The translations under genes were made by a program, and so were the position numbers. Under the pieces are notes generated by a model. It did no database searches. It had not been told where the DNA came from and worked only from the letters and a program-made list of their open reading frames with translations. Shown here piece by piece: positions 4,721-10,381 of a stretch of 15,933 bases of DNA. The stretch is from NCBI GenBank assembly GCA_029856525.1, contig JAHQXC010000026.1, forward strand, positions 1 to 15,933, given 5' to 3'. Position 1 is the stretch's first letter. Each line of letters opens with the position of its first letter. This DNA comes from Candidatus Odinarchaeia archaeon. GTDB lineage: Archaea; Asgardarchaeota; Odinarchaeia; Odinarchaeales; Odinarchaeaceae.

Positions 4721-6283
4721 TTATTTTTTAAATATCAAGTATAGCATTTTCTCTAGGAGAGGAGTGTTAAGAGAGGTTTGACTTTCAAATCTCCCCTTAT
4801 ACGCTTCTTTCTCTAAGCCTAGATCATAGCATGTAGTCTGCTCAATGTTAATAAGCAACCCCGGTGTTTTAAATTTTTCAAAGTCTGGTTGATGTTTCTC
4901 GTAAAATTGTTCACAGCAGCATCCGATGTAACCTTTCGAGCCGGCTTCATCTAGTTCAGCTAGCTTCTCTTCTAAATGCTCGTAGTTTACTATAGTGAAC
5001 GGTTTAAGATTATATTTTAAAGCAAGCTTGTAACCGTCGCCTACTGTACATAAACCGCATAGCGTGCACCCTTCTTTATGCCTGTACTCGCAGCCGACAA
5101 GCTTCGAACAGTAAGGTAATAGTAGAGTATCCACGCCTTTAGTGAGGAAATAATCGAGTTTCTCATTCACGAGAAAGAGGTTATTTATCTCACTGAGAGT
5201 TAAACCGTACCTGGTATATTTTACTCTTTCAACAGCCTCTTTGAATAAGAGTTTGAAGTCGCTTATTTTAACCCCTGGGATTTGAAACTCACGTCTACTT
5301 ATTTTAAGTAGAATCCTGTTTATTTCTCTCATATCGAGGGGTATATGCTTTAAACCAGCCTCTAAATCGTATATAATGCCGGGAGGGTAAGCGAAGAAGT
5401 CACCTGTGATGAAAGCTGATGTTATCGAGTTTAATTCAACGTCCACGGATAAAGCTAATCTAACAAGCCCGCCCGGGGTTTTCTTCAATGTGAAAACAGC
5501 GTTATCCTGGTTTCCAGCTGATCTGATCCCGTAAATCCATTCCCTTGATTTAAAATATGGGAGTTTGCGTAGAAACTCTCTTCTCTCAAATTCTGTAAGC
5601 TCCTGTTCTTCAAATTGTATTTGAAATTCTTCGCTGAACCCTTCTAAAATAGCCTTTTTAATCTCGTTATAAGAGGGGATATAACCTAGCTCCCATTTTA
5701 TAGTTGTCACCCGCTCTTTAAGACTGTCTATTTCTTTATCAGAGAGCTTTTTCACAGGTACTTTTAAAGCCCGGAGCATTCTGTTAACATCTAAATCAAC
5801 TAGCAGAGTACCTTGAAACATGAAAGCCCCGCCGCTGCTGGTTCCCCCTGTCCCGCTTATCTTCCGATGACCTATCTCTATATCGTTCTTCGGTCGGAAG
5901 CGTGCTTTCAACCCTAGTTTACGAAGACCTTTAACCGCTGCCGTGCAAAGCTTCCTGTAAAGTAAGTCAACTTTATACGGGAATCTATCACCGTCTAGTG
6001 TAGCGAATAACTCCCAGCCAAGATGCTCCGGGCTGAAGTATATAGCCCCTCCTCCAGTAATCCTCCGGTTAATATCAATATTATTCTCATTACAGTATGA
6101 GATTCGAATCTCCTGTTCAACTGATTGATGATAACCTACGAGGGCTACAGGCGGGTTAAATCTTAGAAAACGGAAAGTATTAGGTATTAATCCTTCAGCT
6201 CGAGCATCTAGGATAACCCGGTCGAGGGTTATATTCTCAGCTCCTGTTAAAAGCCCTGTGTCTACAACTCTCCAAGTCTCCAT
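4721..6283 (-). CDS. lplA: Lipoate-protein ligase (LplA catalytic + LplB-like domain) fused to C-terminal Cys-rich DUF116-like domain
   Basis: RRITGGGAIY, PKNDI, catalytic-Lys motif RKISGTG and FQGTLL. The TPGGLVR...ITGDFF accessory domain follows. The C-terminal LLLPYCSK..C...CTLCGLC...GCCC...TTC region matches the DUF116 pattern. Confidence 0.88.
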   Translation of the reverse strand: METWRVVDTGLLTGAENITLDRVILDARAEGLIPNTFRFLRFNPPVALVGYHQSVEQEIRISYCNENNIDINRRITGGGAIYFSPEHLGWELFATLDGDRFPYKVDLLYRKLCTAAVKGLRKLGLKARFRPKNDIEIGHRKISGTGGTSSGGAFMFQGTLLVDLDVNRMLRALKVPVKKLSDKEIDSLKERVTTIKWELGYIPSYNEIKKAILEGFSEEFQIQFEEQELTEFERREFLRKLPYFKSREWIYGIRSAGNQDNAVFTLKKTPGGLVRLALSVDVELNSITSAFITGDFFAYPPGIIYDLEAGLKHIPLDMREINRILLKISRREFQIPGVKISDFKLLFKEAVERVKYTRYGLTLSEINNLFLVNEKLDYFLTKGVDTLLLPYCSKLVGCEYRHKEGCTLCGLCTVGDGYKLALKYNLKPFTIVNYEHLEEKLAELDEAGSKGYIGCCCEQFYEKHQPDFEKFKTPGLLINIEQTTCYDLGLEKEAYKGRFESQTSLNTPLLEKMLYLIFKK

Positions 6284-6312
6284 TTAAGATCATGAAAAAA
6301 TTAAAAAAACAG

Positions 6313-6321
6313 TATATAAAA
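6313..6321 (-). promoter_or_regulatory. TATA box of the ligase gene (probably near-leaderless mRNA)
   Basis: TTTTATATA on the minus strand ~30 nt upstream of ATG 6283. No SD is present. Confidence 0.5.
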
Positions 6322-6330
6322 CTATTTTAA

Positions 6331-6492
6331 CTTTATCGGCGGGGTGAAAGACGAAAAATATTTATAGTATCCAATCTTCAAAAAGGATAGAGACGCCTGC
6401 TGACACGGAGCCTCCCCCGGTCGAAACACCGGCAAGCTCCATCATTGAAGCGGGAAACCCCATCCGATAGAGAGGGGCAGTTTATTATTCAA
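6331..6492 (+). mobile_element. Miniature non-coding IS200/IS605 (IS1341-type) derivative/remnant
   Basis: Left part CTTTATCGGCGGGG (6331-6344) is an imperfect inverted copy of CCCCATCCGATAGAG (6458-6472). The right part GAAGCGGGAAACCCC...GGGGCAGTT resembles archaeal tnpB right ends (GAAGCAGGAAGCCCC...GGGGTAGTTCAC). No tnpA/tnpB ORF. Ends are uncertain. Confidence 0.6.
6391..6485 (+). ncRNA. Candidate TnpB omega-RNA / sotRNA-like structured RNA
   Basis: 62% GC (56/90 over 6391-6480) within AT-rich flanks. Nested stems: CCUGCU 6396-6401 / AGCGGG 6449-6454; GGAGC 6407-6411 / GCUCC 6436-6440; CCGGU 6417-6421 / ACCGG 6428-6432. Terminal CCCC..GGGG hairpin at 6458-6477. BRE/TATA GAAAAATATTTATA lies ~25 nt upstream. 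Confidence 0.6.
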
Positions 6493-6515
6493 TGTAATCT
6501 TATACATCTTAGTGG

Positions 6516-7505
6516 TTGAAAATGAGTTTTCATAAGGAAGCGAGTGTAATATTTAACAGTCCACCCTACGAGTTCGCTGAATATTTACAACGTGCGTGGA
6601 GTCTTACAAGAGAGTGTTACGGACAGTGGATTAACTTTTACGCTCCTAGTATACTTGAATACGATGCGGAGGGTTTTAAAAAACCGGTTAAAAATATTTT
6701 TCAATCTGTTTCAGTTACAGGTAGAAGATGCCTGTTAATGTGTGAGCATTGTAAAGGAAGGCTTTTAGAATCCATGCATAGCGCTACAACACCTGAACAG
6801 CTTTTAAAACTCGGAGAAAGTCTTTACAATAACGGCTGCCGAGGCCTGTTAATCAGCGGGGGATCTGATTTAAATGGTTCAGTTCCTTTAAAACCTTTCA
6901 TAGAGAGCATAAGCCTTCTAAGGAAAAAATTTGGAATGAAGATCGCGGTGCACACGGGTTTAATAGACTATCAGACGGCGAGAATGCTTAAAGAAGCGGG
7001 TGTTGAATCCGCTATGATCGATATAATAGGTGACGAGGAGACTATAAGAGAAATATATCATTTAGATAAGAAACCCGGGGACTTTGAAAAAGCTTTAAAT
7101 AATTTAATCCAAGCAGGCTTAGAGGTGAGCCCCCATATAGTGGTGGGGTTGAATAAAGGTATGGTGAAAGGAGAGCTGAAAGCCTTAGAAATGATAAGTA
7201 AAAGTAAAGCTTCGAATATAGTTATCGTGGCTTTAAAACCTTTAGATCCTGGTGAGCTCGGCAACCGGGTGCCTAAACCATTAGAAATAGGGCGGATAAT
7301 CACGATTGCAAGGTTGATGAATCCCATGAAGAAAATTCTATTAGGATGCGCTAGACCAGGAGGGCTTCACAAGGTTAAAACAGATCTTCTCGCTATAAAA
7401 GCCGGCGTTAACGGGATCGCTTTCCCAACACAGGAGGCGTTAAACTACGCTGGAAAACTCGGGTTAAAAGAGAATTTTATCGGTTACTGCTGCTCTTTTA
7501 TTTAA
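6516..7505 (+). CDS. lipS1: Radical SAM protein of the LipS1 lipoyl synthase type (biotin-synthase-like)
   Basis: CxxxCxxC (CLLMCEHC), G.LISGG, AVHTG and PHIVVG. C-terminal GCARP and terminal YCCS match the GC(M/A)R and CC motifs described for Thermococcus LipS1. Adjacent to a lipoate ligase. Start may be ATG 6522. Confidence 0.8.
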   Translation: MKMSFHKEASVIFNSPPYEFAEYLQRAWSLTRECYGQWINFYAPSILEYDAEGFKKPVKNIFQSVSVTGRRCLLMCEHCKGRLLESMHSATTPEQLLKLGESLYNNGCRGLLISGGSDLNGSVPLKPFIESISLLRKKFGMKIAVHTGLIDYQTARMLKEAGVESAMIDIIGDEETIREIYHLDKKPGDFEKALNNLIQAGLEVSPHIVVGLNKGMVKGELKALEMISKSKASNIVIVALKPLDPGELGNRVPKPLEIGRIITIARLMNPMKKILLGCARPGGLHKVKTDLLAIKAGVNGIAFPTQEALNYAGKLGLKENFIGYCCSFI

Positions 7506-7948: not shown

Positions 7949-8551
7949 TCACCCTAACATTCGGTCACGCCAGTGTTCTATTTGAGCTGTTAACTCCTCT
8001 ACATCTCTTTTTGTAAGCTTAGAATCCTTATATTTTCTCAGAGTGTTTATAACACGAGCGATCTCATGGTAAACTGGGTGAAAAGAATGATACTCCATTA
8101 ATTTATCGCGCGCTGTTTCAAATTCCCTTGCAAGCTCTTCACCTGAAAGCTCCCTCTCTAAGCTAGACTCCATATATCTGAATATATCATCCACAGGTCC
8201 CCTGGAAGGGGTTACGTGAGATATTTGAACCGGAGGGCTCGCAGGCTCGGCTACAGGTTTAACCGTTGTTTCAACAACCTTAACCTCTTCTACAGGTTTC
8301 ACTTCAGGTTGAACGGCGACCGAGGGTTTAACAGTTAAATTTCTAACAGCCTCCTCTATCCTCATCACTCGATCATATAACTCTTTAACATCTATTTTCT
8401 GCTCCTTCAACTGGTTGAGTGAAACGCGAATCTGCTCGAATTTATCTGCAACAATTCCGATAAGCTCTTTGAAAAGGGTTTTAAGAGAATTATTCAAGCT
8501 GATAAGCTCCTCTATTTTTTTAATAAGCGCGTTTTGAATACTATCAGACAT
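7949..8551 (-). CDS. Hypothetical protein: N-terminal coiled coil, V/P/E-rich linker, C-terminal helical bundle
   Basis: ORF of ~200 aa. ATG at 8551 has SD AGGTGG, so it is preferred over GTG 8560. Heptad pattern in aa 5-76 and VKP repeats in the linker. Confidence 0.8.
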   Translation of the reverse strand: MSDSIQNALIKKIEELISLNNSLKTLFKELIGIVADKFEQIRVSLNQLKEQKIDVKELYDRVMRIEEAVRNLTVKPSVAVQPEVKPVEEVKVVETTVKPVAEPASPPVQISHVTPSRGPVDDIFRYMESSLERELSGEELAREFETARDKLMEYHSFHPVYHEIARVINTLRKYKDSKLTKRDVEELTAQIEHWRDRMLG

Positions 8552-8700
8552 GAAAACCACCTTAAACTTATTAAAAATATTATGTTAAACAATATTAAAA
8601 GCTAGCTTAACCGGATAATAGAAAACTAACAAAACACTTTTATTAACGGATGTTTTAAAATCTAAAAGAAGAGTTTAACAATAGTCTACGAGGGTTAAAT

Positions 8701-9399
8701 TTGGATAATGAAATCGGCGAGATTAAAGCCGGAATCATTTTAACAGTTATACTAGAATATTTCAAGGAGATATTCGTCAGCCGAAAAACTACAAAAGAAG
8801 GAGTTATAGTATACCAGGTTGAGGAGCCTTCAGGCCCTCTGTGCAGCTTCAGAGTTGAAGGTGATAAAGTCACTTTCACACCTGAATCTAAATTCGGTGG
8901 AAAAGAAAAAGAGATTAAAGAATTAATTTTGAAGAGAACAGGCCTAGTAGAGTACGCTCCACCGCCATTAACTGAGAAACCTGTTAAAGAAGAGCCTGTT
9001 ATCCCTGTTGAATCCGTGATTAAAAAACGTGAAATAGAACCAGAGATCCCTGAATTTGAAAGCAGACCGATAATACCATCAACACCCGGAATAGCTGAAG
9101 GCTTAGATACAATTCCAGGGAGAGTATTAGACTTCGAAGGGGAACCATTCCAGATACTAACAGAACAGCAGCCTATACCTTCAACATCCTACATGGTCTC
9201 CCTTGGAAAATATAAAAACGATTGGGCGGTGGCTGTAACACGGGGTAGAAAAATAATAGGAGTTGAGAAGCTTTCAGCCTTAGATACTAATGTGATAATA
9301 GGCGCTATACAGAAAATAATAGTTATACCTTTATTCTCACCATACGCGGTGTCCAGAGCTGTAGGCAGACTATTAGAAGAGGTAAAAGCGAGAAAATAA
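8701..9399 (+). CDS. Hypothetical two-domain protein with Pro/Glu-rich linker
   Basis: 232-aa ORF with TTG start, GAGGG SD and a downstream T-tract. 12 prolines in aa 86-140. Confidence 0.8.
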   Translation: MDNEIGEIKAGIILTVILEYFKEIFVSRKTTKEGVIVYQVEEPSGPLCSFRVEGDKVTFTPESKFGGKEKEIKELILKRTGLVEYAPPPLTEKPVKEEPVIPVESVIKKREIEPEIPEFESRPIIPSTPGIAEGLDTIPGRVLDFEGEPFQILTEQQPIPSTSYMVSLGKYKNDWAVAVTRGRKIIGVEKLSALDTNVIIGAIQKIIVIPLFSPYAVSRAVGRLLEEVKARK

Positions 9400-9571
9400 G
9401 AGAAACTATTTTTTAAAACACATGCAGAATCTTATAATTGTAATTAAACTGTTCGATGCGAAAACTAAGCGATATTTAACAGAGTATAAGTTAAAATATT
9501 CATATATTATTTGTTAAATAATTTACTATTTTAAACAGCTAAAAATTGTTTCGATGATTGGGGGAGTATAG

Positions 9572-10381
9572 GTGAATGTGAAAATAGAATCCCATCATAT
9601 GATGTTCACTGATGGTTATAAAATAATTATCATAGATGAAAGCGGGAATATTGAAAAACACTATATGAAGTTTGAGGATGGTATAAAAAACGTTTTCAAA
9701 TGGAATGTCCTATCCCCATTCCTAGCTAAACTGAAGATAATCAGCCAAGACTATCATATAAAAAACTCTCAGTTAAGATGGGAGAATGAGATAAAAGTCT
9801 TAAAATATTTGAGAGAAAAGCTATCTGAAGGAGAATACCCTTTATATGTTCCTAAAATTACTTCAAGCCGTGTTAAAAAAATCAGAGATCAGCACCTTCA
9901 AGAATTCCTCGCTCAGTGGAGAGACTACAGGTATACTATATTAGAGTACGTGGAGGGGCCGACGCTTAGAGAAATGTTAACTAAGCCGGAAAACTATAAT
10001 TTAGAGGATGAGGTGAGATTACTAGGAAAGTGTATTGGGATAATGCACGGCTTCGGAGTCTGTCAATTCGATCGGAGAACAACTAATGATATAAAAATAC
10101 CAGGCGGATTCTGCTGCGTGGATTATAGTCTAGCTAAAATATTCCGGAAACGGGGTGACGCATACTATCGAGGGGTTGCATTCGACATAGATAATGAAAG
10201 ACTATGGCTTCCCCCTAAACTATTCGATATATTTCAGGAGGCCCACGACGGCTACATGGAATCAGTGGAAGGTTTTAATATGAATAAATATGAGAAGGCG
10301 CTTTCACAGTTTAAACGATTATCCCAGTTATCTAGAATATTGAAACCGTTATTATTTCAGTTAGACGGGGCGCCGTTGTGA
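9572..10381 (+). CDS. Atypical protein-kinase-fold enzyme (Bud32/RIO/Kdo-kinase-like)
   Basis: alphaC Glu (RWENE), YVPKI, hinge LEYVEGPTL, catalytic loop MHGFGVCQFDRRTTN (DxxxxN), DFG-equivalent DYSLA and alphaF Asp (AFDI). Confidence 0.75.
   Translation: MNVKIESHHMMFTDGYKIIIIDESGNIEKHYMKFEDGIKNVFKWNVLSPFLAKLKIISQDYHIKNSQLRWENEIKVLKYLREKLSEGEYPLYVPKITSSRVKKIRDQHLQEFLAQWRDYRYTILEYVEGPTLREMLTKPENYNLEDEVRLLGKCIGIMHGFGVCQFDRRTTNDIKIPGGFCCVDYSLAKIFRKRGDAYYRGVAFDIDNERLWLPPKLFDIFQEAHDGYMESVEGFNMNKYEKALSQFKRLSQLSRILKPLLFQLDGAPL

Follow-up and report, generated by a model that had tools for sequence, protein, structure and literature searches.

A probable decayed, non-autonomous IS200/IS605 element with a TnpB guide-RNA scaffold between the lipoate genes of an Odinarchaeia archaeon

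Here we present an analysis of 15,933 nucleotides of DNA from a Candidatus Odinarchaeia archaeon (positions 1 to 15,933 of contig JAHQXC010000026.1, assembly GCA_029856525.1), referred to throughout as the window. Two lipoate genes lie divergently in it. The first, a lipoate-protein ligase gene (4721..6283, minus strand), was identified with TIGR00545 and the LplA/LplB models; the second (6522..7505, plus strand, ATG at 6522) encodes a lipS1-like radical-SAM lipoyl synthase, assigned with the NCBIfam LipS1 model at 221.7 bits and E 1.3e-65, a score slightly below the cut-off of 230. Between them, on the plus strand, is a segment of 155 bp (6331..6485) that the original prediction had described as an ORF-less mini IS200/IS605 element retaining its own promoter and a complete omega-RNA-like scaffold. 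The same intergenic region contains, at 6313-6330, a palindromic TATA-like sequence, TATATAAAA, which precedes the minus-strand start of the ligase gene (6283) by about 30 nt, a placement that would fit a leaderless ligase transcript; the 155-bp segment begins only about 10 nt beyond this palindrome.

The segment is an insertion, and its limits are given by empty sites. In three genomes of the same genus (G001-G003), all with the same two flanking genes, the intergenic region reads ...CTATTTTAA/ATATTCG... (slashes mark junctions) and nothing is inserted; the empty site TTTTAA/ATATTC corresponds to TTTTAA-element-TATTC in the window. The element stands directly after TTTAA (6326..6330, plus strand), the target site or transposon-adjacent motif, which is host sequence outside the element and is present in the empty sites of all three congeners. 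On the other side the flank picks up again at TATTCAATG; there is no target duplication, and one base has been lost at the right junction. Two candidate right ends had been proposed, GTTTAT at 6480-6485 and TTCAA at 6488-6492, and the uninterrupted sites uphold the former and discard the latter. They also refute the reading of the segment as an ordinary cis-regulatory leader or riboswitch of lipS1. Such a leader would account for the presence of structured, GC-rich RNA just before a metabolic gene, but it would not be missing at the same site in three congeners, nor be repeated in some 20 copies that adjoin unrelated genes in both orientations; it also has no Rfam match, and we regard this reading as scarcely credible.

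Searches with BLAST and an nhmmer profile, the latter matching the window segment at E 5e-45, revealed about 20 ORF-less copies and several fragments elsewhere in the same genome, with different flanks and in numbers far beyond chance. They are 78-91% identical to the window copy and 128-205 nt long (154-205 nt for the full-length ones). All are intergenic, and none lies within or contains an ORF of 80 aa or more. The copies adjoin unrelated genes, about 11 of 22 facing a gene start and the rest a gene end, with neither an orientation bias nor a favoured class of gene. TTTAA, or TTAA after one change, stands before nearly all of them, and most terminate in GTAGTTCAC, the intact ones ending in TTCAC. 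Target duplications and terminal inverted repeats are absent, and both hairpins are on the same strand. Read from left to right, an intact copy consists of TTTAA/CTTTATCGGCGGGAAG, an imperfect hairpin CCCCCTGC-GAAA-GCTGGGGG, GTGAAAGCTG, the BRE/TATA AAAAGTATTTATAG, a spacer of about 25 nt, the RNA body, a CCCC...GGGG-type hairpin and the terminus TAGTTCAC. The family consensus has GGAAR-CCCC...GGGG hairpins at both ends, of which the window copy has had the left one deleted. By its arrangement, this layout has the anatomy of IS200/IS605 ends.

The termini provide a further tie to that transposon class. The hairpin sequence that the family has at its left end recurs as the right-end hairpin of a G041 tnpB element, itself a relative of the P0001 element described below, and the family's right end is the same as that of tnpB elements in G075, in G041 and at Methanomethylicales and Bathyarchaeia loci. 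For a Sulfolobus islandicus TnpB, TTTAA is the target motif (TAM), TTCAC is the element end and the guide starts right after it (PMC11043419). The designation as an ORF-less IS200/IS605 mini-element is substantiated by the copy number, the position 3' of TTTAA, the lack of duplication, the subterminal hairpins and the tnpB-element ends. No copies were found in the three congeners, and BLAST of the element against 40 relatives returned nothing beyond a weak match to the right-end hairpin. Many copies have damaged hairpins, which, together with the identities of 78-91%, looks like decay.

Similar end modules were also seen on other mini-elements. In G014, from another family of the phylum, gene-less elements with a different body (L064:2320-2690 and L065:2100-2460) have a right-end hairpin and terminus (…GGAAGCCCCATCCGATAKGGTGGGGTAGTTYAC) nearly the same as those of the window family; from these elements, the right-end module appears to be kept across families. 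At five loci of the genome under study, G000 (C18:1815-2049, C93:3500-3730, C10:5043-5091, C3:4618-4664 and C85:9940-9979), the window family's left-end hairpin is attached to different internal sequence or occurs by itself, with the promoter beside it in two cases. The pattern suggests that left-end and right-end modules have recombined among several mini-element families.

The distant homologues of the RNA body were revealed by a scan with a 21-nt motif from it against one genome per species, which detected it at 12 loci, belonging to Methanomethylicales, Methanomethylicota, Bathyarchaeia and unclassified archaeal MAGs. In eight cases the whole body, running from the counterpart of AGGATAAAGATG to TAGYTCAC, overlaps a tnpB reading frame at its 3' end. 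Of these eight frames, one is truncated, another meets a contig end, and the remaining six are full-length, with 376-531 residues from stop to stop. The two proteins that were scanned, P0002 and P0003, matched Pfam OrfB_IS605 and HTH_OrfB_IS605, and P0003 aligned with the ISDra2 TnpB over residues 7-328 (E 1e-42). A covariance model, R2, was built from the eight tnpB-linked loci alone, none of them from this genome. It aligned end to end with the window at 6380..6485 (plus strand), except for model positions 7-24, with 58.7 bits and E 4e-16, a score far above noise; the model E-values are rough, coming from a short calibration. The missing positions are the 5' stem-loop, and the scaffold of the window copy is consequently not the complete one that had been claimed. 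R2 has 19 matches in this genome and matches in 35 of 151 sampled genomes of the phylum, relatives placed in Thermoproteota. Comparison of coordinates across these 151 genomes found R2 matches immediately 3' of a P0003-like tnpB at no fewer than 28 positions, spread over at least 14 genomes (for example G037:C210, G014:C191, G018:C137, G007:C59, G032:C17, G006:C32 and G008:C33).

Furthermore, the left side of the family can be traced to the same source. In Methanomethylicales, the tnpB elements share the family's left-end arrangement (TTTAA/C, GCGGGAA, hairpin, TATA); what directly follows the TATA box in the family has homology to codons of tnpB (...DFISSNRIKMRG); and two sister copies, C32 and C119, gave tblastn matches to the TnpB tail. 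Taken together, these similarities indicate that the family is an internal-deletion derivative of a tnpB element. The original prediction had seen no tnp coding remnant between promoter and scaffold; judging from the tblastn matches, the scaffold itself is the remnant of a tnpB 3' coding tail. The deletion appears to have left the left-end promoter about 25 nt before the guide-RNA scaffold. The other part of that prediction, a promoter of the element's own followed by an omega-RNA-like scaffold, agrees with what was found: an archaeal promoter motif and, after it, a scaffold homologous to the RNA at tnpB 3' ends.

The TnpBs that accompany this scaffold class in Bathyarchaeia and Methanomethylicales (L096:2310-3437(-), L097, L102, L103:2259-3410(+) and L104) are multi-copy even though the C4 zinc ribbon is missing from the interval between 'GTS' motif and RuvC-III. 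Additionally, in the Methanomethylicales loci the left-end promoter is separated from tnpB by a small ribbon-helix-helix-like ORF (MMKGTIAVSKEVKDALDKL...), fused in frame in L102. That some TnpB branches have lost the zinc finger, and that one archaeal branch is associated with MazE, is mentioned in PMC10691335.

An RNAalifold analysis of the R2 alignment gave 32 predicted pairs; as its eight sequences are 83% identical, only three of these pairs have compensatory changes. Among the copies of this genome, 84% of alignment cells were paired, no better than in shuffles, and single-sequence folds of both strands were likewise no better than shuffles (z -1.64 and -1.12); because of these two results, selection on RNA structure in this genome is not demonstrated. 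The lack of covariation beyond shuffles and the damaged hairpins fit neutral decay. No Rfam model, HgcC included, matched the window at gathering score, and at E up to 10 the sole match in 6200-6600 was a chance CRISPR-DR44 at E 8.3. This search, proposed with the original prediction, was negative because the scaffold class is absent from Rfam. ARAGORN found no tRNA or tmRNA.

These results bear on the idea of a host small-RNA gene family, C/D-box-like or K-turn and unrelated to transposons. The predicted promoter, the conserved body and the presence of CUGA and UGA motifs would suit it, but the box order is unlike that of C/D RNAs, there is no Rfam or tRNA match, and the transposon-type ends and the tnpB 3' homology account for every part; we consider it highly improbable. 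The reading that we prefer, and hold with good confidence, is that positions 6331-6485 represent, in decayed form, a non-autonomous IS200/IS605 element, or PATE, produced by internal deletion of a tnpB element and carrying a TnpB guide-RNA scaffold.

The window copy has three defects: the left hairpin is deleted, the 5' stem-loop of the scaffold (R2 positions 7-24) is gone, and the terminus has become TTTAT. Its left end is the remnant CTTTATCGGCGGG/GTGAAAG (6331..6349, plus strand), in which the copy alignment places the deletion between 6343 and 6344. Here the intact sisters have a hairpin of about 22 nt that both the window copy and the copy C109 have lost, and the half of a GC hairpin noticed in the original prediction is what remains of it. 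Since the same deletion is found in these two copies at different sites, it is a poor fit with a strict need for the hairpin in transposition. The BRE/TATA (6353..6366, plus strand), recognized at the outset, is retained in nearly all copies, and the succession left end, hairpin, TATA is repeated upstream of Methanomethylicales tnpB. It appears to be inherited from the left end of the parental tnpB elements and is a predicted promoter of the element. The predicted transcription start (6386..6392, plus strand) is placed by the spacing typical of archaeal promoters, about 26 nt past the TATA-box centre. A transcript starting at about 6389 would contain about 97 nt of scaffold; the functional scaffold of ISDra2 has 116 nt (PMC10097598).

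Within the scaffold, the single-sequence fold, on the plus strand, pairs 6396-6401 with 6449-6454 in an outer stem, 6407-6411 with 6436-6440 in a middle stem and 6417-6421 with 6428-6432 in an inner hairpin, and the right-end terminal CCCC/GGGG hairpin pairs 6458-6461 with 6474-6477. These are the three nested stems and the terminal hairpin of the original prediction; the G+C content, put there at 62%, is 0.56 for 6380-6485. The right-end terminus, CAGTTTAT (6478..6485, plus strand), compares with the family consensus TAGTTCAC, the cleavage motif TTCAC having mutated to TTTAT. Just past it, 6486..6505 (plus strand) would, from its position, be the guide flank of a read-through RNA, and it is also part of the lipS1 5' region. 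In the published IS200/IS605 mechanism, TnpA requires both hairpins and the cleavage motif, and the window copy is therefore probably immobile. It probably also has no TnpB partner.

The transposon genes of this genome comprise three tnpB-related loci and one tnpA. On contig C44, in an element region at C44:8001-9902, a Y1 tnpA (about 8222-8614) overlaps a tnpB (8559-9902); the tnpA gives the single PF01797 match of the genome (C44:8252-8602, E 1e-39). A Y1 TnpA would be available to the elements in trans from this locus, its recognition of their ends being putative. The 180 nt upstream of the tnpA (C44:8001-8180) resemble a decayed copy of the window family, with left end, TATA and the 5' part of the scaffold. 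A derivation of the 5' half of the RNA from the tnpA 5' UTR of this IS605 element was considered and dropped, since tnpB 3' ends elsewhere contain the whole body; the stretch C44:8001-8180 may rather be a decayed family member adjoining tnpA.

The second tnpB locus, C93:26009-27289, is an intact tnpB-only element encoding P0001 (426 aa), with D-E-D catalytic residues and a CxxC..CxxC zinc ribbon; it stops its contig at the right end ...GAGGAGTAGCTCAC. The third is a tnpB fragment on C121. The right end of the P0001 element has the same terminal form as the family, a hairpin followed by GTAGCTCAC. An alignment (A2) of the right-end RNA from eight TnpB genes of this type, in eight genomes, has a well-supported consensus structure, with 20 of 36 pairs showing compensatory changes; the covariance model R1 was built from it. 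As a parent of the window family the R1 class was rejected, its matches being weak and mainly to the last 3' hairpin (E 0.005-0.04). A second mini-element family (C125:20-400, C71:10602-10950 and C29:3839-4200 on the minus strand, with scraps at C77:29838-29927 and C78:10460-10531) consists of internal-deletion derivatives of the P0001 tnpB element; it keeps approximately the first 20 codons, the last 50 or so codons and the right end, that is, the whole guide-RNA region.

The cognate TnpB implied by the original prediction was not encountered. A genome search and tblastn detected no P0002- or P0003-like tnpB body in this assembly of 1.32 Mb (127 contigs, 93% complete), just the tail remnants inside the copies, and the three congeners likewise yielded no P0003-like tnpB. 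Other members of the order carry both P0003-like tnpB and the scaffold. Several contigs end in the element repeats, and the matching tnpB could for that reason be present in the organism yet unassembled. Among the sequencing runs listed, this DNA occurs in a sediment metagenome, probably its source, and in no RNA run. No nuclease-dead TnpB was found; the TnpB genes found in the genome are the nuclease-intact P0001 and one other class, and neither is adjacent to the element.

One alternative is that the cassettes are active now, their RNAs being loaded in trans by the resident P0001 (C93) or by an unassembled matching gene, and the 20 or so copies being retained through cutting of emptied sites. 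The genome does contain an intact TnpB with D-E-D residues and zinc ribbon, whose element shares the terminal form of the right end; most copies have retained the promoter; and standalone omega RNAs act in trans with compatible effectors (PMC10691335). The scaffold classes, however, differ, the copies being matched weakly by R1 and strongly by R2, and R2-type tnpB was not found in the genome. The copies, moreover, look decayed in identity and hairpins, and the one in the window is without the 5' stem-loop and the TTCAC end. We therefore think present activity unlikely, and prefer to read the copies as decaying remains of a tnpB element.

The effect of the insertion on lipS1 can be approached through the congeners, which have a conserved TTTTAAATATT (TTTAAATATT at the junction site) 42-43 nt before the lipS1 ATG. 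This sequence looks like the lipS1 TATA box, and the insertion falls inside it, at TTTAA/ATA. The right junction of the window copy reads TTTATTATT (6481..6489, plus strand), aligned at the position of the congeners' TTTAAATATT; it is a product of the terminal mutation together with the loss of one base, stands as far from the ATG as the original sequence did, and may be a re-created TATA box. No oligo-T terminator (five or more T) follows the right end. Transcription of lipS1 could then come from the element promoter by read-through, or else start from the TATA-like TTTATTAT that the mutated right junction provides. Among 19 copies, six have right flanks beginning ATA or TAT, as against 6% of all genomic TTTAA sites (binomial p 7e-4), a rough contrast in that the baseline includes coding DNA. 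This is a hint that the elements often land in TATA boxes. In archaea the TTTAA target is a TATA-box core, which means that such elements tend to land in promoters.

The original prediction had also raised the possibility that a TnpB, or one of its nuclease-dead relatives, is led by the RNA to the sequence upstream of lipS1 and so regulates the lipoate genes. The guide-equivalent flank, 6486-6505, does lie in the lipS1 5' region, and the mutated end TTTAT, which stands beside the target, matches TTTAA at four of five positions. The base that has changed, though, is the one adjoining the target (-1A), whose mutation had the second-largest effect on cleavage among the five TAM positions in the S. 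islandicus TnpB (PMC11043419). Nor was a nuclease-dead or matching TnpB found, and the other copies follow no pattern of gene class or orientation. Searches for trans targets of 21 guides gave self matches and chance near-matches only, none TTTAA-flanked, and in this genome the window flank has an exact match only at its own site, preceded by TTTAT. We give this regulatory role very little credence; a transcriptional effect is the likelier present-day consequence of the window copy.

The following sequence of events would account for the family. An internal deletion in a tnpB element would have joined its left end, with hairpin and TATA promoter, to the last 120 nt or so of the element, comprising the guide-RNA (omega/reRNA) scaffold, the right-end hairpin and the TTCAC terminus. 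The product would have been moved as single-stranded DNA by a Y1 TnpA acting in trans and inserted 3' of TTTAA without duplication, in the window splitting the conserved TATA-like sequence before lipS1. Transcription would begin near 6389 and continue across the scaffold, with the flank supplying the guide; given an intact copy and a matching TnpB, the RNA would direct cutting of the emptied site, and recombination would restore the element. Selfish retention by cutting of emptied sites has already been demonstrated for bacterial elements.

A more far-reaching version can be put forward as speculation, and we think it quite improbable. It would make the 20 or so promoter-equipped scaffolds a working guide set that outlived the loss of its own nuclease and is served by a non-matching resident, or an unassembled, TnpB-like protein, the TTTAT end of the window copy letting the complex bind its own flank and modulate lipS1. 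A milder form would have selection repairing the split TATA box with the terminus of the element.

The finding leaves the current understanding of TnpB systems unchanged. It provides a boundary-defined archaeal gene-less IS605 derivative, in which a deletion appears to have set the transposon's own TATA promoter before a TnpB guide scaffold, and it defines a scaffold class that is outside Rfam and present in 35 of the 151 sampled genomes of the phylum. For Methanomethylicia, Bathyarchaeia and related groups, the models offer a possible means of annotating orphan guides and tnpB right ends.

Several known systems bear comparison with the window family. In regulation, the nearest parallel to the idea of lipoate control is TldR, the nuclease-dead, TnpB-derived RNA-guided repressors (PMC10705468), in which a guide is likewise directed to a promoter region; the window locus differs in being without a nuclease-dead TnpB, a functional TAM beside the target or a conserved gene association. 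In RNA type, the likeness is to the omega RNA of ISDra2: the parental class P0003 matches the ISDra2 TnpB, the RNA overlaps the tnpB 3' end in both, and the scaffold sizes are about 100-120 nt in the window's class and 116 nt in ISDra2 (PMC10097598). The ISDra2 target motif, in contrast, is TTGAT, there is no detectable similarity in RNA sequence, and the ISDra2 pseudoknot was not identified here (PMC10097598). The reRNA of the Sulfolobus islandicus IS605 TnpB7/SisTnpB1 shares the TTTAA site/TAM, the TTCAC end and the guide directly after it (PMC11043419; 10.1101/2023.03.06.531077); that system, unlike the window family, is a full element with tnpB and has been experimentally tested, and the likeness noted is one of motifs and ends.

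The closest relatives in kind are gene-less. PATEs were named in Haloquadratum walsbyi for gene-less IS605 derivatives with near-terminal palindromes, no target duplication and repeat-mediated core deletions (PMC3119063), and Meers et al. note, in work with Geobacillus stearothermophilus, that omega RNAs are often encoded in them and have to be used in trans (PMC10055086). Like the window family, PATEs are too short for a protein, lack terminal inverted repeats and target duplications, occur in many copies, have near-terminal IS605-type palindromes and a core deletion, depend on TnpA in trans and often carry omega RNAs. The standalone omega RNAs of OMEGA systems resemble it in being mobilized scaffolds without effector or transposase, for use in trans with compatible effectors, as summarized by Altae-Tran et al. 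(PMC10691335, citing its ref. 1); those come from genomes in which a compatible effector is also encoded, whereas here only non-matching TnpB classes were found. The element type is thus already known, PATEs and standalone omega RNAs having been described, and it is not a new system. What is particular to the window family, and sets it apart from the PATEs, is the absence of a matching tnpB class from the assembly, a scaffold class outside Rfam, its home in an uncultured archaeal lineage and a dedicated predicted promoter, with the TATA box about 25 nt before the scaffold.
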